Shown piece by piece: positions 597-62,262 of a stretch of DNA of 64,000 nt. This DNA is from Minisyncoccota bacterium (GTDB taxonomy: Bacteria; Patescibacteriota; Minisyncoccia; Phycocordibacterales; UBA5272), in assembly GCA_041651055.1 (NCBI GenBank), contig JBAZJW010000002.1, forward strand, positions 26,980 through 90,979, in the 5' to 3' direction. The position numbers were made by a program, and so were the translations under genes. The notes under the pieces are model-generated. The model was not told the DNA's origin, searched no databases, and saw only the letters and a program-made list of their open reading frames with translations. The stretch's first letter is position 1, and each line of letters begins with the position of its first letter.

Positions 597-1002
597 AATG
601 GCTCGAATAATCATATGTGATGATAGTATTTCATTTTGTGAGATGATGAAAGATATGCTATTAAAATGTTCTAATAAGAGGTATGAATCTTCTTTTGAGT
701 TAAAAGTGGATGGAGCACACAGTGCTGTTGAGTTTTTTGATATGATAAAATCACGTAATTATGAATTGGTGATATTGGATATAATATTGGCTCGTGATGA
801 TGGCTGGGCAATTTTGTCGGAGATTCGCAAGGACAAATCTAAGTCTGATCTTCCAGTGATAGTGGTGTCTGCTGTAGATAGCGTAGATTTGAAGTATGAG
901 TCGATAAGAAAAGGTGCGGTAGATGGTTTTGCTAAGCCTCTTCGGGGGGAAGAGCTAAAGCGTTTTGTGGATGTGGTATTCAACTTGGTCGTGGACAGGT
1001 AA
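586..1002 (+). CDS. Stand-alone CheY-like receiver (REC) domain protein with no output domain
   Basis: ARIIICDD acidic pair, ELVILDIIL phospho-acceptor Asp, VIVVSAV, FAKP lysine: the canonical REC signature. Start may be ATG 598. Confidence 0.7.
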   Translation: MDCEMARIIICDDSISFCEMMKDMLLKCSNKRYESSFELKVDGAHSAVEFFDMIKSRNYELVILDIILARDDGWAILSEIRKDKSKSDLPVIVVSAVDSVDLKYESIRKGAVDGFAKPLRGEELKRFVDVVFNLVVDR

Positions 1003-1020: not shown

Positions 1021-1507
1021 CATGGAAACTCCACAAATAGTTACGTTGGCGGTTGCGGTATTTGCTGCTTTCATGACTCTTATTATAGGTGTGTGGTTGA
1101 AGAAACTGTTTTCATCGTTTGTTGACAGCATAAAGGAAAAGGTTGACAAGTCTGTAGATAAAGAATCGTTTGAAGCATTTAAGAAAGAAATACAAAATAA
1201 CGTGCAGGCAGTTTTAGGGAAAGTGGGTGGTATAGAGCGAGAATGTAAAGATATAGACCAAGTAAACCGAGGCCAAGAAAAAGACATCACCAGACTTCAA
1301 GAGTGCACGCGTGATCTAGACTCAATAAGAAAACAAATGCTTGTTATTGAATCGTTGAAGTCTGAATTTTTGGAGAAATTTACGCGTCGCGGGGACTTTA
1401 TACGTGAAATGCAGTTGTTGAATTCGCAGTTGGAAATCATACAGAAAAAGATTGATAAGCTAGATGAGCGCATAAACAGACGTGCGTTCAAAGTGGTAGA
1501 GGAGTGA
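1021..1507 (+). CDS. Membrane-anchored coiled-coil protein
   Basis: N-terminal transmembrane helix IVTLAVAVFAAFMTLIIGVWL followed by heptad-rich sequence; RBS aaagggga upstream of the ATG. Confidence 0.5.
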
Positions 1508-1513
1508 TAGGTA

Positions 1514-1711
1514 ATGGGCACTAACACTATCAAGGAAAGATTTGCACACGTAATAGACAAATTAACTGGTATGAATGGTGGTGGTAAGTTAGAATTGAAG
1601 AAGATGGTTGAAAGAGGTGAAATCGATGATGTGGAAGCTAGCATCATTGAAACATACGCGGTATGTGAAAAGATAAAGAGATCTATAGACAGACTATCAG
1701 AAGCCGTATAA
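1514..1711 (+). CDS. Hypothetical small protein
   Basis: ORF with RBS, packed tightly against the upstream gene. Confidence 0.4.
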   Translation: MGTNTIKERFAHVIDKLTGMNGGGKLELKKMVERGEIDDVEASIIETYAVCEKIKRSIDRLSEAV

Positions 1712-1741
1712 CTATTAATAACGAAACGAAAAGCAGGCTCG

Positions 1742-2302
1742 ATGATCACCAAATTCAATCAAAGTATAGGTGATGTGGTGTTGGTGGAGTCTTCGAAGTA
1801 CGAAGACGATCGTGGGTTTTTGTCAGAAGTATTTAACGAAATGGAGTATGAGAAGGCAATTGGTAAGTCTATTAGTATCAAACAGTTGAATACATCGTGT
1901 TCAAAGAAGGGTGTTATTAGAGGAATACACTATGCTGTTAATAACCCGCAGGGGAAATTGGTGCAGGTGTTGAGTGGTGCTGTGTACGATGTAGCCGTTG
2001 ATTTGAGAGCAAATTCTCCAACCTTCAGCAAATGGTGTGCTGCATTTTTGATGAATGACACTGATGCGTGTAGATTGCTGTGGATTCCACCTGGGTTTGG
2101 GCACGCTTTTATGGCCTTGGCAGATAATACCATCATTCAGTATTTGATGACTGAAGTGTATGAAAAAGATAATGACAGAACGATTTTATACAATGATCCT
2201 ACTATTAATATTAGGTGGCCAACATTTTTTGTTGATAAAGTGGTTGTGTCGGAAAAGGACAAAAACGGTAAAAGGCTGACAGAAGCAGAAGTGTATGGTT
2301 GA
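1742..2302 (+). CDS. rmlC: dTDP-4-dehydrorhamnose 3,5-epimerase (RmlC cupin)
   Basis: IRGIHYA, VQVLSGAVYDVAVDLR, WIPPGFGHAF: the RmlC signature blocks. Confidence 0.85.
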   Translation: MITKFNQSIGDVVLVESSKYEDDRGFLSEVFNEMEYEKAIGKSISIKQLNTSCSKKGVIRGIHYAVNNPQGKLVQVLSGAVYDVAVDLRANSPTFSKWCAAFLMNDTDACRLLWIPPGFGHAFMALADNTIIQYLMTEVYEKDNDRTILYNDPTINIRWPTFFVDKVVVSEKDKNGKRLTEAEVYG

Positions 2303-2489
2303 TTTAATAGGAAAATGGGTAAAATTGTACAACGGTATCATTATGAATGTAGTAAAAGAAATTGATGCTGATTACGTGTTGTGTGCGTTTATACCATGCT
2401 CCAAGAACTCGAAGAGGTATAAAATAAAGAAGTCAGATATTGTGGAAGTAACTGATAGGGAAACAAAACGTCCAGCAGGGTGTGTTTAA
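2295..2489 (+). CDS. Hypothetical small protein
   Basis: ORF overlapping the rmlC stop. Confidence 0.35.
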   Translation: MVDLIGKWVKLYNGIIMNVVKEIDADYVLCAFIPCSKNSKRYKIKKSDIVEVTDRETKRPAGCV

Positions 2490-2538
2490 TAGCTTGATTG
2501 TGTGGCTGATTTGTGGTATGATTGCGTTGGAGGTCATA

Positions 2539-2783
2539 TGACTGAAGCTGTGAAAATAGAGATGCCATCTAAGTTGCTGGTTCTGACTGATGAAGATGAT
2601 ATCAAGCTTGCTACAAAGATGTGGCAATTGTGGAGTGTGGTGCATGAAGCAGTTTGGGGTGATTTTTACATGACCAAAATCAAGCACGGTGAGTGTGATG
2701 AAAAAACCCGTGCCGCGTATGAAGAGTACAGAGATTTTATTTTTAGGTGTCTGGAAGAACACGGTATAGACATTAATGAATAA
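2539..2783 (+). CDS. Hypothetical protein
   Basis: ATG with ggagg RBS 4 nt upstream; the ORF ends just before the tRNA pair. Confidence 0.4.
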
Positions 2784-2784
2784 T

Positions 2785-2858
2785 ACCCCCGTTGTCTAAT
2801 AGGAGAAGACACCTGGCCTCTACCCAGGTAACTGCGGGTTCGAGTCCTGCCGGGGGTG
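2785..2858 (+). tRNA. tRNA-Arg (anticodon TCT)
   Basis: Manual cloverleaf. Acceptor ACCCCCG/CGGGGGT, D arm GTCT-AATAGGAGA-AGAC, anticodon arm CCTGG-CCTCTAC-CCAGG, T arm GCGGG-TTCGAGT-CCTGC. Position 33 is C, which is unusual. Confidence 0.75.
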
Positions 2859-2862
2859 TTGT

Positions 2863-2937
2863 GCACCGTTAGCTCAACTAGGTTAGAGCGCGTGGCTGTT
2901 AACCACGAGGTTGAACGTTCAATTCGTTCACGGTGCG
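2863..2937 (+). tRNA. tRNA-Asn (anticodon GTT)
   Basis: Manual cloverleaf. Acceptor GCACCGT/ACGGTGC, D arm GCTC...GAGC, anticodon arm CGTGG-CTGTTAA-CCACG, T arm GAACG-TTCAATT-CGTTC. Confidence 0.85.
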
Positions 2938-2987
2938 TGTGGTTGCAATGAAACTGGCGGGTGTACTTCTGAAAGGCGGTACAATAC

Positions 2988-3314
2988 GTGACCGATGTAC
3001 CAGTAGTAAACATAAAAGTGGATTTGCTTACATTGTTGTGTGCTGTTCAAGATTGTTGTCTGGGTGAGTACTCCAGGACAGGCGGTTTTTTGAAAATAAA
3101 CAAGGATAATGAACTGCTCGATGGATACCACAGGCTGGTGGAGTGTATGGTGCTGGGTGTAAAAGAATTGAGGTGTGAAGTAGGAAACGGTGATACTAAT
3201 CCTGCAAGGGAGGAATTTATTGCAAAGCCGAACGACAGGTTTTGTGGTTTGGAAAGATATTATGATGCAAGTGTGCTTGAAGATGTGTGTTGTGCGCTAG
3301 GAGGTGGCGTGTGA
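2988..3314 (+). CDS. Hypothetical protein, possibly a ParB/Srx-like fold (DGYHRLVECMVLG)
   Basis: ORF; weak motif resemblance only. Confidence 0.35.
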   Translation: MTDVPVVNIKVDLLTLLCAVQDCCLGEYSRTGGFLKINKDNELLDGYHRLVECMVLGVKELRCEVGNGDTNPAREEFIAKPNDRFCGLERYYDASVLEDVCCALGGGV

Positions 3315-3649
3315 TTAATGTTGCGAATGTAAGATACACCAAATACAGCAAAAATGATCCGACTGTGATATATGTAGGGCGAAAAATGAAAGATTTTGGT
3401 GGCTCTGTGTTGGGCAATCCATATAAAATAAACAAACAGGACAATGTTTTAGATACTGGAAGAGATAAAGTAATTCGTAAGTACAAAATGTGGTTGTTAG
3501 AGAGAATGAAAGACAAAGAGTCCGATCAGTTCAAGGAAATGATCAGACTAAAGAGACTGTCTGAGGCAGGGAATTTGACGTTGCTGTGTTGGTGTTGGCC
3601 TTTGCATTGTCATGGTGATGTAATAAAGGAGATACTTGAGAGTATGTAA
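3311..3649 (+). CDS. DUF4326-like protein
   Basis: VIYVGRK...GSVLGNPYKI ... LLCWCWPLHCHGDV matches the DUF4326 pattern (GNPF...C.C.P..CH). Confidence 0.5.
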   Translation: MINVANVRYTKYSKNDPTVIYVGRKMKDFGGSVLGNPYKINKQDNVLDTGRDKVIRKYKMWLLERMKDKESDQFKEMIRLKRLSEAGNLTLLCWCWPLHCHGDVIKEILESM

Positions 3650-3677
3650 TTTACTTCCTTTGCGAATGCAGTATAAT
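3650..3677 (+). promoter_or_regulatory. Sigma70-like promoter TTTACT-N16-TATAAT
   Basis: TTTACT 3650-3655, 16-nt spacer, TATAAT 3672-3677, upstream of the 3698 gene. Confidence 0.5.
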
Positions 3678-3697
3678 ATCAATTAGGAGGTACTTAC

Positions 3698-4198
3698 GTG
3701 ACAGACAAGAGTGTTGCTACACCGAGATCGATTCCGGAAAATTATTACAGCAACTACTTGGGTAGATATGTCTTGGAGTTGTGTGATCGGTACAACAAAA
3801 GTTTGACAGATGTTGCGCACAGGCTCCACTGCGGGAGACCTACGCTATATGCATTTGTGACTGGAAGACGTAAGTACATTGACAGCACCATTTTGGATCG
3901 ACTGGGAGCAGTATTCCCCAATGTTGATATGGATAACGTGCGCAGGCTTGAAAAGATGGATGAAGAGGAAAACGTGCGCCGAAGACCGGGCGTGAAGGTC
4001 ATCAAGAAATGGAACAAAACTGGTAGTGTGGTGACGCCAGAAAAGGTGATTGGCGCACCAGTTGGCGTGGACTCTGTATCTAGAATAAAATTGGCTCTGT
4101 GGGATACGCTGGACGGATCACTTACTCTGTCTACTGCTAGGTCTATTTTAGAAACCATGCTTGATGCGATGACGTCACCAACGTCGGAGAAAAAGTGA
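3698..4198 (+). CDS. Putative HTH DNA-binding protein
   Basis: GTG start after RBS aggagg; LTDVAHRLHCGRPTLYAFVTGRR is a helix-turn-helix-like segment. Confidence 0.45.
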   Translation: MTDKSVATPRSIPENYYSNYLGRYVLELCDRYNKSLTDVAHRLHCGRPTLYAFVTGRRKYIDSTILDRLGAVFPNVDMDNVRRLEKMDEEENVRRRPGVKVIKKWNKTGSVVTPEKVIGAPVGVDSVSRIKLALWDTLDGSLTLSTARSILETMLDAMTSPTSEKK

Positions 4199-4467
4199 TG
4201 GATGCAATCCTTGCAAAGTGCCCATTTTGTGGTCAGCAACAGACTTTTACCACAGACAAACTTTGTCAAATAGGGATTACTGCACGTGGCAGCAAGTCCA
4301 AAATGTACAGGGTCGGTGATGCTGTAAGACCTGGAGGCATGTGCAGATCAGATGCCAAACTTGTACTGGACAGTGAGTGTCCAGGGTGTCACGAAAAGCC
4401 TGTGTTGGCCTTGAAGGGGTACAAGATTGGTGGCATGTTACGTAGCGCGGACGAGAATCTAACATGA
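4195..4467 (+). CDS. Zinc-ribbon protein
   Basis: CPFCGQQ ... CPGCHEK cysteine pairs. Confidence 0.45.
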   Translation: MMDAILAKCPFCGQQQTFTTDKLCQIGITARGSKSKMYRVGDAVRPGGMCRSDAKLVLDSECPGCHEKPVLALKGYKIGGMLRSADENLT

Positions 4468-4964
4468 CATTGGTAGCCAAAGCCATAGAGTTTGCCAAGA
4501 TTGCCCACGGCGATCAAAAGTATGGTGATAAGCCATATTTTCAACATCTGCTTGAAGTGGGTATGGCAGTAACGCTGTCCAAGATGCACTATAAACATGT
4601 GGGTGATGATGAGGTAATATGTGCCGCGTTTTTGCATGATGTGCTTGAGGATACTGAAGTTACGCGCAAACAGTTGATTGAGGAGTTTGGAGTCAAAGTT
4701 GCAGATTTAGTTTTTGCAGTCACTGATGAGCCTGGCATCAGCCGGAAGGAAAAGAAGGCAAAAACTTTATTGAAAATTGCGGGGGCTGGTGATGCCGCCA
4801 CGCTAATCAAGCTGTGTGACAGGATCTGTAACATGCGTAACAGCGCCGGTACTAGTTTTATGGATATGTATAAGAAAGAGGCAGCAGAATTTAAAAGGGT
4901 GTTATATAGGAAAGGGCTGTTCGAGGAATTGTGGTCAGAATTCGATGCGCTGGTGAAATCATGA
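4464..4964 (+). CDS. HD-domain small alarmone hydrolase (SpoT/Mesh1-type (p)ppGpp hydrolase-like)
   Basis: HGDQKYGDKPYFQHLLEV ... AAFLHDVLEDTEVTRKQLIEEFGVKVADLV matches the RelA/SpoT HD hydrolase signature. Confidence 0.75.
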   Translation: MTLVAKAIEFAKIAHGDQKYGDKPYFQHLLEVGMAVTLSKMHYKHVGDDEVICAAFLHDVLEDTEVTRKQLIEEFGVKVADLVFAVTDEPGISRKEKKAKTLLKIAGAGDAATLIKLCDRICNMRNSAGTSFMDMYKKEAAEFKRVLYRKGLFEELWSEFDALVKS

Positions 4965-5074
4965 AGACGAAATATGCGCGATCATTTAGTGGGGCGCGGG
5001 TGGGCTTGTCTCGGCACGTCCAGGCACACCTCGGTACGGCTTGGGTAGCTAAATATCAAGAGGAGAACATTTGA
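4961..5074 (+). CDS. Candidate 37-aa micro-ORF (MKTKYARSFSGARVGLSRHVQAHLGTAWVAKYQEENI)
   Basis: ATGA overlap with the HD gene stop and TGATG overlap with the NADAR start suggest translational coupling; GC-rich; unverified. Confidence 0.25.
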   Translation: MKTKYARSFSGARVGLSRHVQAHLGTAWVAKYQEENI

Positions 5075-5781
5075 TGAAAGTGATTGATAGCTTCCGTGGT
5101 GAACATGCTTTTCTGTCTAATTTTTATGCATGTAACATATCTGTCGGTCTCAATTGTTTTAGCTCTTCGGAACAGATGTATCAGTATTATAAGACTACGG
5201 ACGCGAAATTCAGAAAATTGATTCTGTCTGATGGTGGCAACCCATCTGTAGCCAAGAGGCTTGGTTGTAAGGCTCCACTACATGAAGATTTTGAGAAGAA
5301 CAAGCTGAGTATTATGTATTTGGTGGTATTTGAGAAATTTATTCAAAATCTAGATTTGCGTGATAGACTTTTACAAACCGAGAACGCCAAATTGGTAGAG
5401 GGCAACAACTGGAAAGATGTGTTTTGGGGCGTGTGTGGAGGTAAGGGTGAGAATCACTTAGGAAAGATCCTGATGCAGGTGCGCCACCATTTTCAGTGTT
5501 GCCGTAATTCCAAAATTTACATGGAAACAGTAGATTTTGTTGGTGGTACGTTGGACGATGTTTATGAGAAAAAAAGTGAAAATGAGAGAAGGCAGCAAGA
5601 CGAGAAGGTCGTTAGGAATATTGCTAAATGCAAGAAGTGTGGTGACGTAATAGAATCTAAATATCGACATGATTTCGTTCAGTGTAAGTGTGGTGCTATT
5701 TTTGTTGATGGTGGACACGACTATTATAGGCGCGGTGGTAACTTAGAAGATTTTGATGAGATTGACCCCTCCGTTGATTAA
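5074..5781 (+). CDS. NADAR (YbiA/DUF1768) ADP-ribose-processing hydrolase with C-terminal zinc ribbon
   Basis: FRGEHAFLSNFY and VFWGVCGGKGENHLGKILMQVR NADAR blocks; C-terminal CKKCGDV...CKCG. Confidence 0.8.
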   Translation: MKVIDSFRGEHAFLSNFYACNISVGLNCFSSSEQMYQYYKTTDAKFRKLILSDGGNPSVAKRLGCKAPLHEDFEKNKLSIMYLVVFEKFIQNLDLRDRLLQTENAKLVEGNNWKDVFWGVCGGKGENHLGKILMQVRHHFQCCRNSKIYMETVDFVGGTLDDVYEKKSENERRQQDEKVVRNIAKCKKCGDVIESKYRHDFVQCKCGAIFVDGGHDYYRRGGNLEDFDEIDPSVD

Positions 5782-5827
5782 ATAATACGTTATAACCCAT
5801 AGTACAATAATGCAACTGGGAGGAAAT

Positions 5828-6406
5828 ATGCTATCCAGATTTGTAGCTGCATCAATAAAATGTTTGTCACAGGAAAAAGAGCAGGAATTTGATGTATCAA
5901 AGATGACTCTTGAAGAAATACAGGAATTAATTGATAAGGGGGTTGGTTTAGAGCCTTCAGGCAAAAATAAGTTATATGTTGAATACGAGCAGGCCGGTAG
6001 TCCCGATAAACTAAGAATACATATACCAGGCGGGTATTTTTGGGATGTAATACCACAGCCAGATGGAAGAATACAAATACAACCAATAGATGTTAAAATC
6101 ATTTATCCAACTGACAAAAGAAAGGTGTACAAGGATTGGGACGATGCTTTGAAAGCGCTCCCTAAAGGCTGGTTGGTGTACAAAGAAGAAAAAGAGGAAG
6201 TACCGCAACAAAAATCTGCGTGGCTTAGACTTGCAATAAAGGTAATATCACAGATGAAAAATATAAAAACCCGCAAGATGGTGTTGTGTCCAAACTGCAA
6301 GACTATTCAAAGAGACAATGCCCCATGCCCAAACTGTAAATATCCTATAGGAAGTGGCCTTCCTACCGACAAAGAACGAAAAGGATCGAAGAACAAGGGG
6401 GCATGA
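5828..6406 (+). CDS. Hypothetical protein with C-terminal zinc ribbon
   Basis: RBS ggagga; CPNCKT...CPNCKY. Confidence 0.5.
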   Translation: MLSRFVAASIKCLSQEKEQEFDVSKMTLEEIQELIDKGVGLEPSGKNKLYVEYEQAGSPDKLRIHIPGGYFWDVIPQPDGRIQIQPIDVKIIYPTDKRKVYKDWDDALKALPKGWLVYKEEKEEVPQQKSAWLRLAIKVISQMKNIKTRKMVLCPNCKTIQRDNAPCPNCKYPIGSGLPTDKERKGSKNKGA

Positions 6407-6778
6407 ATGCTGTTTATAACCAAGGCTATAGCATTTTTCAAGTCTGCCGGATTGTGGATTGTCAATAACTTCAAATTGTTCATGATCATAGCTGGACTAG
6501 TGATTGTTACTATTTTGGTATTGCTGTGGCGCAATAAAAGCAATAAGATTAAGCAATTGCAGGCAGAACTGTTTTTAGCGCAGTCTAAAATACAATTGGC
6601 CGATCTTGCCCGTAAGTATGCTGTGTCCATGGCGCAATTTATGAACTTGAGACAACAGGATGTTGTTTTAGACAAAAAACTGAATGAAATAGAGAAAGAT
6701 TTAGCAGAAAAGGTTGATCCTGACATGACGGCAGAAGAAGTAGCAGCCAAATTTAGAGAAATGGGAGTCAGACCATGA
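6407..6778 (+). CDS. Membrane protein with coiled coil
   Basis: Transmembrane helix MIIAGLVIVTILVLLW. Confidence 0.5.
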   Translation: MLFITKAIAFFKSAGLWIVNNFKLFMIIAGLVIVTILVLLWRNKSNKIKQLQAELFLAQSKIQLADLARKYAVSMAQFMNLRQQDVVLDKKLNEIEKDLAEKVDPDMTAEEVAAKFREMGVRP

Positions 6779-7173
6779 AGCGCACCTTTTTCGTGTTGGT
6801 GCTGTTGGTATCTGCGCCATCTTATGCACAAGACGACATTCGAGTACAACAAATAGACGGAAAGAGTTTTGTGTGTTTCACAGAAGATGATGCCAAAGTG
6901 TTGTTGCAATTACGGTTAGATTATCCTAAAATGAAAGAGAAAATACTTATCCTTGATGAACGAATAGAGTTAAAGAATAAAATGGTGATGTCACTTGAGG
7001 ATGCCAATGAGTACCTAAACCAACAAAATGGGTTGCTTTTGAAAACCAACGCTGGATTGGAAGAAAAATTAGATTCTATGGATTCGTGGTATCGGTCTCC
7101 CATATTATGGAGCGTCGTGGGCGTTGTTATAGGTGTTGGCATCACTGTGGGGGTAATGTATGCAGTTAAATAA
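6775..7173 (+). CDS. Secreted or membrane protein (signal peptide plus C-terminal transmembrane helix)
   Basis: N-terminus FFVLVLLVSAPSYA; C-terminus ILWSVVGVVIGVGITVGVMY. Confidence 0.5.
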   Translation: MKRTFFVLVLLVSAPSYAQDDIRVQQIDGKSFVCFTEDDAKVLLQLRLDYPKMKEKILILDERIELKNKMVMSLEDANEYLNQQNGLLLKTNAGLEEKLDSMDSWYRSPILWSVVGVVIGVGITVGVMYAVK

Positions 7174-7450
7174 GTACATCAAGTTGGCAGTTGGTGAATT
7201 AGAAGATAGAGTATCTGAGGATGTGGCCAGAGAGGTTGGTGAAGCGATAGGGATTGATTGGGACGAAGTTGAATTTACACCCAAAGACCTGGCTGCTGGT
7301 ATGATGGTAGAATTGGAGCATGGATCCAAAGATGCTAATACGGACGTGACTGGTGATGATTTGGAGATGACTGCTAAGATAGCTTGGGCTCATCTAAAAG
7401 AATCTCCTAAATACTATAAATTATTGGACAAGATGGAAAAAGATTTTTGA
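7160..7450 (+). CDS. Hypothetical acidic protein
   Basis: ORF. Confidence 0.45.
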   Translation: MQLNKYIKLAVGELEDRVSEDVAREVGEAIGIDWDEVEFTPKDLAAGMMVELEHGSKDANTDVTGDDLEMTAKIAWAHLKESPKYYKLLDKMEKDF

Positions 7451-7474
7451 CTCCTTCCTTTCTTGTAGTAGAAT
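7447..7474 (+). promoter_or_regulatory. Sigma70-like promoter TTGACT-N16-TAGAAT
   Basis: The -10 ends 6 nt before ATG 7481, so the transcript may be leaderless. Confidence 0.4.
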
Positions 7475-7480
7475 GGTTAC

Positions 7481-7933
7481 ATGGCTGTTATAGAAATAGA
7501 AACCGAGCCCGTTTCTGTCCCGGTGGATAAATACAGATTTGTGGTTTCTATTTTTGATACCATTAGAAGAATATACGAAATAACAATTCCTTCTTATCTA
7601 TACAAGAATATTGAAGAAAAAATAAAATCAAAACATTTTTACATGAAAGATTACAATACTATGAGACACAATCCTGAAGTATCCATAAAACTACTCAGAA
7701 CTGAACAAGAAGTAGATTGTGTAAATGAAGGTAAGCCTACCCATAAAAATGTTTCAAAATACGTAACCCGAATACCAGCCATAATGAAAATATCTGATGA
7801 ACTAGCAAAACGCGGTCAGAATTTTGATGAGATCATGGATGTGTTGGTAAGTACCTTTGACGATGAGTCTATGAGAGACAAGCACTCTCCAATACCAGAC
7901 ATAGTTAGAATTTCTATTTCTGAGGAATCGTGA
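7481..7933 (+). CDS. Hypothetical protein
   Basis: ORF. Confidence 0.5.
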   Translation: MAVIEIETEPVSVPVDKYRFVVSIFDTIRRIYEITIPSYLYKNIEEKIKSKHFYMKDYNTMRHNPEVSIKLLRTEQEVDCVNEGKPTHKNVSKYVTRIPAIMKISDELAKRGQNFDEIMDVLVSTFDDESMRDKHSPIPDIVRISISEES

Positions 7934-9002: not shown

Positions 9003-9470
9003 ATGGGTGTACATGTGCTTGAAACGCTGTTGAGAAAAAAGCCCAATTCTGTACAAAATGGGAATTCTGTACAAAATAAAAGACATGCACCGGCAGAGGC
9101 CATAGTCATACGCGACCGATCTAAGGAATTAAAAGTGGAACAAGCAAAAGTAGAGTCTCAAGAACAAGAGAAAAAAGAGCAACAATCGCCCTCTTTAGAT
9201 GTGGTTAGAAAGTCTATGGAAGAAATCAAAATGCTCACCTTTTCCTATGAGTCGCATGGTGACAAGAAAATTCGTAAGGTTGAACCTTACAAGCTTATGA
9301 GGAACAACAAAGGTGAGATCATTTTGTACGCATACTGTGTGGAATCGAATGGAATACGCGCTTTCAAAATAGACAAGATCGTGGAGTGTGCTGCTGTTGA
9401 AGAAACGTTTATGCCTAGGTGGCCGGTTGAAAATCAATTAGATCCAAAACCAGATCCAGACAAGAAATAA
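9003..9470 (+). CDS. WYL-domain protein
   Basis: KVEPYKLMRNNKGEIILYAYCVESNGIRAFKIDKIVE fits the WYL consensus (R.v.Py.l...g.wYl.ayc...R.Frld+I). Confidence 0.55.
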   Translation: MGVHVLETLLRKKPNSVQNGNSVQNKRHAPAEAIVIRDRSKELKVEQAKVESQEQEKKEQQSPSLDVVRKSMEEIKMLTFSYESHGDKKIRKVEPYKLMRNNKGEIILYAYCVESNGIRAFKIDKIVECAAVEETFMPRWPVENQLDPKPDPDKK

Positions 9471-61023: not shown

Positions 61024-62262
61024 ATGGTAACATTGTTGGCAGTGTTTTTGTCTCATAAAATACGTCTTTATCCAAATGACAAACAGGTGTCTTACCTGAA
61101 ACGTGCTTGTGGTATCAAGCGTTTTGCTTATAATTGGGCGTTAGCTGAGTCTAGAAAACTATATGAGCAAGGCATAAAAACTTCCGGTTACGATCTCAGT
61201 AAACGATTTAACGCAATAAAACGGGAACAGTTTCCTTTCGTACTAGAAGTATCAAAATGGGTGTCTCAAAAAGCCATTTATGATCTTGAAGACGCTTACA
61301 AAAATTGGTGGAGTAAACGTGCGCGTGCCCCCAAATTCAAGAAAAAAGGTAAGTGCAAAGATAGTTTTTATCTGGCCAATGATGCAACAAAAACTGTTGA
61401 GCACAGAATTTATATTTCTAAGTGTGGGTGGGTGCGCATGTCTCAGTCTTTGCGTTTTCCTGGTCACGTGATGTCTGTAGTAATTTCAAGTGAATATGCT
61501 AAGTGGCATGCTTCTATCCAAGTGGAATTGGACGGCACCTGGTCTTGTCCTCATACTTGCAAAACCCAAGCAGTGTGTGGATTGGACATGGGTGTACGTG
61601 ACTTAGTGGTATTAGATGATGGCACTAAGTACTTAGCCCCTAGGAGTCTGCGTAAGTCCGAGAAAAAGTTGAAGAGACTGAATCGTGTAGTCTCAAGGAG
61701 GGTAAAAGGATCAAACCGTAGGAAGAAAGCTGTGCATATACTAAGTAGAGTCCATGAGAAAGTGACTAACATACGCAAGGACTGTATACATAAGATCACT
61801 GCTAAACTAGTAGAAGACTACCGTATCATAGGTATGGAAGATTTGAACGTCAAGGGTATGATCAAAAATCATCACTTGGCCAAGTCTGTGTCTGATGCTG
61901 CGTTTGGTACAGTCAAAAGCCAATTGGAGTACAAGACTGAGCTGTCAGGATCAGTATTAGTCAAAGCAGATCGCTTTTACCCATCGAGTAAGATGTGTTC
62001 AAACTGTGGACATGTCTTAGACACTTTGCCGTTGCGTATACGTGTTTGGACTTGTCCTGGGTGCGGTGCAGTACATGATCGTGATGTCAATGCTGCTAAA
62101 AATTTACTAAATGTCGCCTTAAGGTATAAGGAGACTGTAAACGCTCGTGGAGTAGAAAGCTCTGGTACTGGTGATTTTACTAGTACGAAACTGTCTACTG
62201 TGAAGCGAGTACCCGGCAGCCGCAGACCAACGGTGGTTTCGGTTCAAGTCCGGGGTTCCTAA
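61024..62262 (+). CDS. tnpB: IS200/IS605-family TnpB (OrfB) RNA-guided nuclease
   Basis: RuvC-I GLDMGVRDLVV, RuvC-II IGMEDLNVKGM, zinc finger CSNCGH...CPGCGAVHDRDVNAAKNL; intact. Confidence 0.85.
   Translation: MVTLLAVFLSHKIRLYPNDKQVSYLKRACGIKRFAYNWALAESRKLYEQGIKTSGYDLSKRFNAIKREQFPFVLEVSKWVSQKAIYDLEDAYKNWWSKRARAPKFKKKGKCKDSFYLANDATKTVEHRIYISKCGWVRMSQSLRFPGHVMSVVISSEYAKWHASIQVELDGTWSCPHTCKTQAVCGLDMGVRDLVVLDDGTKYLAPRSLRKSEKKLKRLNRVVSRRVKGSNRRKKAVHILSRVHEKVTNIRKDCIHKITAKLVEDYRIIGMEDLNVKGMIKNHHLAKSVSDAAFGTVKSQLEYKTELSGSVLVKADRFYPSSKMCSNCGHVLDTLPLRIRVWTCPGCGAVHDRDVNAAKNLLNVALRYKETVNARGVESSGTGDFTSTKLSTVKRVPGSRRPTVVSVQVRGS

Follow-up and report, generated by a model that had tools for sequence, protein, structure and literature searches.

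A chain of five overlapping open reading frames (ORFs) of phage origin was examined in the present study, located within a 64,000-nucleotide stretch of contig JBAZJW010000002.1 (assembly GCA_041651055.1, positions 26,980 to 90,979; hereafter the window). The chain occupies positions 3698-5781 of the + strand, its members being linked by stop/start overlaps of 1 or 4 nt, and it encodes a predicted small alarmone hydrolase (SAH) with an HD domain, a candidate micro-ORF and a NADAR-family protein fused to a C-terminal DUF7695 module. We propose, with moderate confidence, that the chain represents a phage counter-defence cassette with two stand-alone enzymes, 'erasers' similar in kind to those serving as type IV antitoxins. 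Both enzyme families have published counter-defence roles in phages, which makes this interpretation plausible and not new. The new points are modest, comprising the NADAR-DUF7695 fusion and an orphan coupled micro-ORF of uncertain reality, so that the finding is mostly ordinary with mild architectural novelty and mainly confirms published biology.

Three of the five ORFs, namely those of the HD protein, the micro-ORF and the NADAR fusion, had been placed in one tight operon by a preliminary description of this DNA, and their coordinates, + strand and overlapping ATGA and TGATG junctions were recovered as claimed. The overlaps support the operon, the chain having five ORFs from position 3698 rather than three. 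Its first two members, a protein with a weak helix-turn-helix match and a Cys-rich protein (Table 1), meet at a TGATG junction, and the stop of the Cys-rich ORF overlaps the HD start in an ATGA. The HD stop and the micro-ORF ATG share the ATGA at 4961-4964, and the micro-ORF TGA and the NADAR ATG share the TGATG at 5072-5076. A strong Shine-Dalgarno sequence (AGGAGG, -11.6 kcal/mol) precedes the first gene at 3698, the HD start has a weak one (-4.2 kcal/mol), and the micro-ORF ATG is preceded at 4 nt by GGTGA (-7.4 kcal/mol), which beats the median gene and 87% of internal ATGs. No terminator-like site was found within 2400-7600. Promoter-like sites are as frequent in the region as in shuffled sequences, so that the sigma-70-like match in front of the chain is weak evidence, and overlaps of 4 nt are commonplace in this genome, occurring at 16 of 123 junctions. 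The five ORFs are probably translated as one coupled unit.

The third ORF of the chain is a predicted RelA/SpoT-type, Mesh1-like SAH. The protein contains HGDQKYGDKPYFQHLLEV and LHDVLEDT, in which the preliminary description had recognised a SpoT hydrolase signature, and its matches to Pfam HD_4 (1.8e-15, 57.4 bits against a cut-off of 27.2), PHROG 990 'metal-dependent phosphohydrolase' (3.6e-37) and TIGR00691 spoT_relA (2.8e-20, model positions 1-120 of 687 only) are far beyond chance. It is a single-domain protein lacking synthetase, TGS and ACT domains, its match to the long RelA/SpoT models being confined to their hydrolase part. Among solved structures it is closest to the Mesh1/MESH1 entries 3nqw, 3nr1 and 5vxa, which include Drosophila Mesh1 (8e-13) and human MESH1, and further PDB matches comprise Rel/SpoT hydrolase domains and bacterial SAHs (range 8e-13 to 1e-7). 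An alignment of 22 HD homologues shows no variation at H28, H58, D59, E62, D63, D119 and N123, and the HD, ED and D...N motifs of Mesh1 align with the corresponding residues of the protein. By analogy with the Mesh1 and Rel structures, we take H...HD...D to be the metal ligands and the E-D pair and Asn to be catalytic. An apparent Arg-to-Tyr/Lys change at the substrate-binding 'Q-x-R' site (K19/Y20) was dropped because two PDB alignments disagree on its placement.

SAH genes are common in phages, with 310 phage records matching the HD protein. Its nearest database relatives share 53% identity, and a Seunavirus SAH, from the genus to which phage PVP-SE1 belongs, shares 33.5%. Each of five toxSAS toxins tested was neutralised by the stand-alone SAHs from PVP-SE1 and SSU5, and the authors of that work proposed that such enzymes allow phages to evade abortive infection based on alarmones (PMC7229694). 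The SAHs MESH1 and ATfaRel strip toxSAS-added pyrophosphate from tRNA CCA ends, restoring the tRNA; MESH1 is in addition an NADPH phosphatase, and besides (p)ppGpp the Mesh1-type SAHs hydrolyse (pp)pApp, NADPH and 3'-pyrophosphorylated tRNA. In a comparison of jumbo phages, 'HD-alarmone PDEases' were counted among the predicted counter-nucleotide enzymes. The alarmone degradation put forward in the preliminary description is thus borne out at the level of the SAH family, with (p)ppGpp as one candidate substrate among several, between which the sequence cannot choose. The protein resembles the characterised phage SAHs in being a single-domain RelA/SpoT-type HD hydrolase of ~165-180 amino acids (aa) with the same H...HD...ED...D...N active-site pattern, and is likewise an orphan gene in a lytic-type phage genome. 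It differs in being only ~30-35% identical to them and in its coupling to a micro-ORF and a NADAR gene, an arrangement not known for the characterised ones.

The N-terminal part of the last protein of the chain is a NADAR domain of the YbiA family. In addition to the Pfam match (Table 1), it scores 77.7 bits against a cut-off of 73.7 with TIGR02464 (riboflavin-intermediate N-glycosidase). The best solved match is Escherichia coli YbiA (2b3w, 2.1e-15), with a Phytophthora NADAR next, and a Foldseek search with the predicted model returned 2b3w (7.6e-11, target-normalised TM-score 0.79) and 8bau (1.1e-7). The AlphaFold model has a predicted local distance difference test score (pLDDT) >90 over residues 1-110 and 130-145 of the fusion protein. 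Residues E33, K40, E109, D115 and W118 are invariant in an alignment of 33 NADAR homologues, with E33/K40 corresponding to the mutated pairs E88/K95 of the E. coli C7 NADAR and E36/K43 of T4 AdfN; position 73, where the consensus is Trp, is Phe in this protein. Hidden Markov model searches thus give strong support to both the HD and the NADAR families, as assigned in the preliminary description, and the catalytic residues, whose mutation in orthologues it had named as a reason for doubt, are invariant in both alignments. In a pairwise alignment E109 (LVE) and D115 match YbiA, making both candidate 'last-strand' acidic positions YbiA-like, and the domain begins at about residue 4 with no N-terminal DNA-binding extension. 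The assignment to the YbiA family is based on these YbiA residues at both candidate positions and on the lack of a DarT1-type N-terminal extension.

NADAR genes are very common in phages (591 matching phage records), and the present domain is at most 51% identical to anything else in a search of 5.8 billion proteins. It shares 42% identity (4e-29) with the NADAR of the T5-like phage Lindwurm (Markadamsvirinae). The phage NADARs AdfN-T4 (gp30.3 of T4), AdfN-Bas32 and AdfN-Bas60 strip ADP-ribose (ADPr) from DNA and allow phages to plate again on hosts with DarTG1, AdfN-Bas32 coming from a T5-like member of the Markadamsvirinae (PMC11825919); the Lindwurm homologue compared here is from this group and is not necessarily AdfN-Bas32 itself. 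As with the AdfN proteins, the NADAR examined here is an orphan phage NADAR with catalytic Glu and Lys seven residues apart (E33/K40, as E36/K43 in T4), to which it adds a C-terminal DUF7695, a module absent from the 80 closest viral NADAR loci both as a fusion and within 3 kb. More generally, all NADARs tested, YbiA included, remove ADPr from guanine in DNA and RNA, YbiA-type NADARs act on ADP-ribosyl-cytidine too, and a myxobacterial YbiA is the antitoxin of the ADP-ribosyltransferase (ART) toxin YarT. The domain shares with E. coli YbiA, the YarT-YbiA system and TIGR02464 proteins the fold match, the LVE and D-x-x-W residues and the absence of an N-terminal extension, and differs in being viral, fused to DUF7695 and without a nearby YarT or riboflavin gene. 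Nor is it a stand-alone domain of ~150-160 aa, the fusion having 235 aa compared with a median of 152 codons for the ORFs (measured stop to stop) of the 80 viral NADARs. With DarG1 (BC4488 family) it has in common the NADAR fold, the catalytic Glu and Lys and a presumed removal of ADPr from guanine N2, whereas it has no adjacent DarT1, no basic N-terminal beta-beta-alpha extension, and residues of the YbiA type rather than the BC4488 type.

What the preliminary description had called a C-terminal Cys4 ribbon fused to NADAR is a DUF7695 module, and the fusion was confirmed by strong Pfam matches to both parts (Table 1). The motif reads C186-x2-C189...C204-x-C206 together with E-S, H-D, D-G-G and Y, all 13 columns that are invariant in an alignment of 38 members being present. 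Modelled alone, DUF7695 forms a six-strand all-beta structure (pLDDT 81.5) with no significant PDB match by Foldseek (best E 0.8) or by profile. Within BFVD, a library of viral models, it matches only phage and giant-virus proteins that are either DUF7695 or unnamed, and no literature was found on the family. Elsewhere, DUF7695 makes up whole proteins of 56-139 aa, precedes a MazG-like domain in lambdoid-type phages, lies beside MazG, metallophosphoesterase, WYL, DUF2726, DUF4406 and helicase fragments, and is found in a bacterial defence-island-like locus with Schlafen-like and MNT/HEPN genes. The combination with NADAR was seen only in the query's own protein (136 homologues from the 5.8-billion-protein search), so that the protein shares all invariant residues with other DUF7695 proteins (the 4 Cys, E-S, H-D, D-G-G and Y) and stands apart in its partner. 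The reading frame is continuous across NADAR and DUF7695 with no start codon at the module boundary, and the fusion therefore looks real as assembled. Identity to the modules of MazG-like fusions reaches 80%, compared with at most 51% to anything else for the NADAR domain, a contrast that points either to shuffling of domains or to a module under very strong constraint. As a separate observation, several DUF7695 'fusions' from gut metagenomes have a common linker, CTKGRxIMPxIIRNAIRCKKCG, and look like one small DUF7695 gene read through from various upstream genes.

In the mechanism that we propose, the Mn2+-binding H...HD...D centre of the Mesh1-like SAH would remove the 3'-pyrophosphate from (p)ppGpp, (pp)pApp or tRNA CCA ends, where it would have been placed by host RelA/SpoT-family synthetases or toxSAS toxins. 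The YbiA-family NADAR, an N-glycohydrolase, would cleave ADPr from guanine, and possibly cytosine, in phage DNA or RNA, after its addition by host ARTs (DarT1, YarT or pierisin-like). The C-terminal DUF7695, gained by a 'naked' NADAR core, may tether the enzyme to its nucleic-acid or protein target. The higher activity of the DarT1-linked NADAR has been attributed to its nucleic-acid-binding extension, in view of which the addition of a binding module to a naked YbiA core is a sensible idea.

Several points weigh against a counter-defence cassette of this kind. In one study E. coli YbiA and T4 gp30.3 failed to rescue DarT1 toxicity, though both were active in vitro, so that activity against a given toxin should not be assumed, and comparative genomics predicts soluble ADPr derivatives rather than DNA as the target of most phage NADARs. 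TIGR02464, whose cut-off the domain passes, names its family as a riboflavin-intermediate N-glycosidase. The MazG-like, metallophosphoesterase and DUF4406 partners of DUF7695 elsewhere act on free nucleotides, making the fit of a nucleic-acid tether not obvious. HD and NADAR genes are almost never adjacent in other phages (see below). Neither an ART nor a toxSAS partner was detected nearby with Pfam and PADLOC, the eight neighbouring proteins giving no ART or DarT match, which fits an orphan counter-defence gene and gives no target. Finally, the enzyme roles are predicted from sequence. The preliminary description had proposed counter-defence against DarTG-like systems, which agrees with the published AdfN work; specificity for DarTG is nevertheless only a possibility, because the protein belongs to the YbiA family, has no DarT neighbour and no N-terminal extension, and because YbiA and gp30.3 did not rescue. 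A phage-borne defence system was also considered and rejected, there being no PADLOC system match and no ART. In that analysis the NADAR domain matched the candidate-system NADAR model PDC-M42C (1.1e-13), the other seven proteins matched nothing, and the NCBIfam model DS32_2 scored 52 bits against a cut-off of 240.

For the micro-ORF between the two enzyme genes, we lean slightly towards it not being a gene, in which case 4965-5073 would be a non-coding spacer that carries the ribosome-binding site of NADAR and is open by chance. A HMMER search of 1.84 billion representative proteins gave no credible homologue, the only match besides itself (P0208) being rejected as a tandem-repeat artefact, and no family match was found in Pfam, PHROGs, NCBIfam or PADLOC. 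The GC content of the micro-ORF (53%, or 58% in a 100-nt window) departs from the 44% of genes, and its codon score lies at the 9th percentile of real gene pieces. Its frame stays open in 17% of composition-matched shuffles (given the right frame), making the configuration by chance moderately unlikely only. In addition, the strong Shine-Dalgarno sequence of NADAR itself makes coupling unnecessary. On the other side, both ends of the micro-ORF use the overlap signals of neighbouring real genes, its GGTGA is well spaced, and its codon score is positive only in frame (+0.09, compared with -0.50 and -0.33 in the other frames). No RNA family, unusual fold or repeat accounts for the spacer otherwise: a comparison with Rfam gave nothing at E<=1, its predicted fold is no better than those of shuffled sequences (z-score -0.6), it is not a tRNA and it has no second copy within the window, and an RNA element was rejected on these grounds. 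Translation of the micro-ORF into a functional peptide is a serious possibility to which we give a little under an even chance.

Three other origins of the micro-ORF were considered and rejected. Its 17- and 18-mers match five high-GC viral contigs, in which the matches end by 19-24 nt, and are chance seeds rather than a trace of transferred or mobile sequence. A frameshifted N-terminal extension of NADAR is precluded by the TAA at 5050-5052, which closes the NADAR frame, and there is no slippery heptamer; no similarity was detected to the C-terminal extension of longer HD homologues, of which the micro-ORF might have been a remnant. The HD-NADAR junction itself is shared by no relative, the nearest HD and NADAR proteins being 53% and 51% identical, respectively. 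As a further point in favour of a gene, the gene caller of the source assembly has the micro-ORF as 47 aa from the GTG at 4931.

Turning from the micro-ORF to the enzymes, an alternative to their counter-defence role, which we regard as unlikely, is that they serve metabolic or signal clean-up and counter no specific toxin. NADAR would then act on soluble N-ribosides, such as riboflavin-pathway intermediates, free ADPr derivatives or cADPr-like immune signals, while the HD protein would lower (p)ppGpp or dephosphorylate NADPH, keeping the cell metabolically active. Such a role would suit the TIGR02464 score, YbiA as the best solved match, the DUF4326 gene 50 nt upstream of the chain, the NADPH phosphatase activity of MESH1 and the nucleotide hydrolases that partner DUF7695 elsewhere, and a preprint describes the stringent response as an obstacle to infection by phages (bioRxiv 10.64898/2026.01.27.700999). 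Set against this are the activity of every tested NADAR, YbiA included, on guanine in DNA and RNA and the DarTG1 counter-defence provided in vivo by three unrelated phage NADARs. Furthermore, the genes annotated within ~5 kb include none connected with riboflavin or with NAD salvage. Two stand-alone erasers directed at toxin-made marks remain our preferred reading. In a bolder form of it, to which we give little credence, DUF7695 would be a portable zinc targeting or regulatory module joined in viruses to various 'eraser' enzymes of nucleotides or nucleic acids, with NADAR as the partner here and MazG-like pyrophosphatase, metallophosphoesterase and DUF4406 as partners elsewhere, and the HD protein, micro-protein and NADAR-DUF7695 fusion a coupled unit restoring toxin-modified tRNA or DNA by removal of both pyrophosphate and ADPr.

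The adjacency of HD and NADAR genes is not a general rule. No NADAR was found within 4 kb of any of 11 viral HD loci, and only one of 80 viral NADAR loci has an HD gene within 3 kb, at a distance of 2.6 kb. Different genes flank the HD gene in its three closest relatives (49-53% identity), either Thg1 and a metallophosphoesterase or unknowns. In the closest of these (P0122, 53% identity; contig SRR22452305_836545, locus L094 at 1250-3161) the HD gene is directly followed by Thg1-like and metallophosphoesterase genes, giving the neighbourhood a tRNA-repair flavour. An independent overlapping NADAR-HD pair, in reversed order, is present in Burkholderia phage BcepSaruman (gp437/gp436; locus L013 at 2836-3965), its HD protein being homologous to that of the window at 2e-15, and the related phage BcepSauron carries the NADAR too. 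Several large phages hold both genes far apart. A conserved HD-NADAR pair was therefore rejected on the locus counts and the differing neighbours, with BcepSaruman as an isolated second case, and to this extent the tight operon of the preliminary description does not extend to a conserved pair. We interpret the adjacency as clustering of auxiliary or counter-defence genes, not as an obligate two-enzyme system. Least credible of all is that the HD protein, micro-ORF and NADAR-DUF7695 fusion, perhaps with the DUF4326 protein, form an obligate multi-step pathway on one composite substrate (for example, an ADPr-derived nucleotide with an extra ribose-linked phosphate or pyrophosphate, coupling setting the stoichiometry), since the overlaps that run through the whole chain, the oppositely ordered BcepSaruman pair and the predicted activity of DUF4326 on ribose-linked terminal phosphates are countered by the locus counts, by the other neighbours of the closest HD relatives, by the large phages that keep both genes apart and by the frequency of 4-nt overlaps in this genome.

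The setting of the cassette is that of a phage genome. Database entries for identical NADAR and HD proteins come from a single metagenomic contig of 183,779 bp (ENA ERZ27247363 k141_3129229), which NCBI lists under a Candidatus Paceibacterota metagenome-assembled genome (MAG). Terminase large subunit, portal protein and major head protein genes are all encoded in the window, for which reason the contig is read as phage, most likely a large tailed phage genome binned with a bacterial MAG. The five-ORF chain is part of the auxiliary, non-structural region of this ~184-kb genome. No DNA-level relative of positions 3000-7000 of the window was found by megablast among 50,697 phage records, and a single-sequence NADAR scan of IMG/VR for close relatives of the locus gave no match. 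The DUF4326 protein upstream may be functionally linked to the chain: recurrent fusions of DUF4326 with NADAR, Macro and SLOG domains have been reported from large DNA viruses (PMC9503650, PMC7824862), and comparative genomics predicts that the domain processes ribose-linked terminal phosphates. With DUF4326, receiver and WYL proteins and two tRNA genes, the region recalls the 'counter-nucleotide and NAD-centred' sets of genes that have been described in large phages. Further away, the transposase-like ORF may be an insertion element within the structural module. The ORF immediately downstream of NADAR has an ATG at 5810 without a ribosome-binding site (+0.6 kcal/mol) and a second ATG at 5828 with GGGAGG (-10.2 kcal/mol), the latter being the start placed by the source assembly.

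Table 1 Features of the overlap chain and its surroundings, with positions numbered from the first nucleotide of the window
Feature	Position	Strand	Evidence and remarks
166-aa protein with weak helix-turn-helix match, first gene of chain	3698-4198	+	HTH_31 0.0028 (below cut-off); PHROG 8 0.0067
89-aa Cys-rich protein (CxxC...CxxC)	4198-4467	+	Zinc-ribbon or Lar-like Pfam matches, all sub-threshold
Predicted small alarmone hydrolase (HD), 166 aa	4464-4964	+	Pfam HD_4, PHROG 990, TIGR00691
Micro-ORF, 37 codons, candidate gene	4961-5074	+	MKTKYARSFSGARVGLSRHVQAHLGTAWVAKYQEENI; GC-rich; overlaps on both sides
NADAR Shine-Dalgarno AGGAG	5061-5065	+	8 nt upstream of ATG, within micro-ORF; -9.1 kcal/mol, exceeds 78% of window gene starts
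NADAR-DUF7695 fusion, 235 aa	5074-5781	+	NADAR domain, ~35-aa low-confidence linker, DUF7695 Cys4 module
NADAR catalytic domain, residues 10-140	5101-5493	+	Pfam NADAR 2.6e-24, 86.7 bits vs cut-off 35.1
DUF7695 module, residues 178-228	5605-5757	+	Pfam PF24749 1.7e-23, 82.5 bits vs cut-off 25
Sigma-70-like promoter match TTTACT-16-TATAAT	3650-3677	+	10/12 matches; in 48-nt gap before chain
DUF4326 protein	3311-3649	+	Pfam DUF4326 4.1e-17; ends ~50 nt upstream of overlap chain
tRNA-Arg(TCT) and tRNA-Asn(GTT)	2784-2859 and 2862-2938	+	ARAGORN and Rfam agree; ~1.5 kb upstream of alarmone hydrolase
RmlC-like dTDP-4-dehydrorhamnose 3,5-epimerase, phage-encoded	1742-2302	+	2.6e-55
Stand-alone receiver-domain protein	598-1002	+	Response_reg 7.3e-16; non-structural region
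ORF without family match, C-terminal CxxC...CxxC motif	5810-6406	+	Just downstream of NADAR
WYL-domain protein	9003-9470	+	1.5e-10; non-structural region
Transposase-like ORF	61024-62262	+	PHROG 506, 7.1e-115; ~2 kb downstream of major head protein gene

Under the proposed counter-defence role, both enzymes would let the phage undo the marks that abortive-infection toxins leave on nucleotides, tRNA or DNA, and the coupled cassette would be another example of orphan 'antitoxin-like' counter-defence genes. DUF7695 is the part that deserves follow-up, being widespread in phages and giant viruses, strongly conserved and repeatedly joined to nucleotide-processing enzymes. Its fusion to NADAR, an enzyme with a measurable activity, offers a handle on what the module adds.

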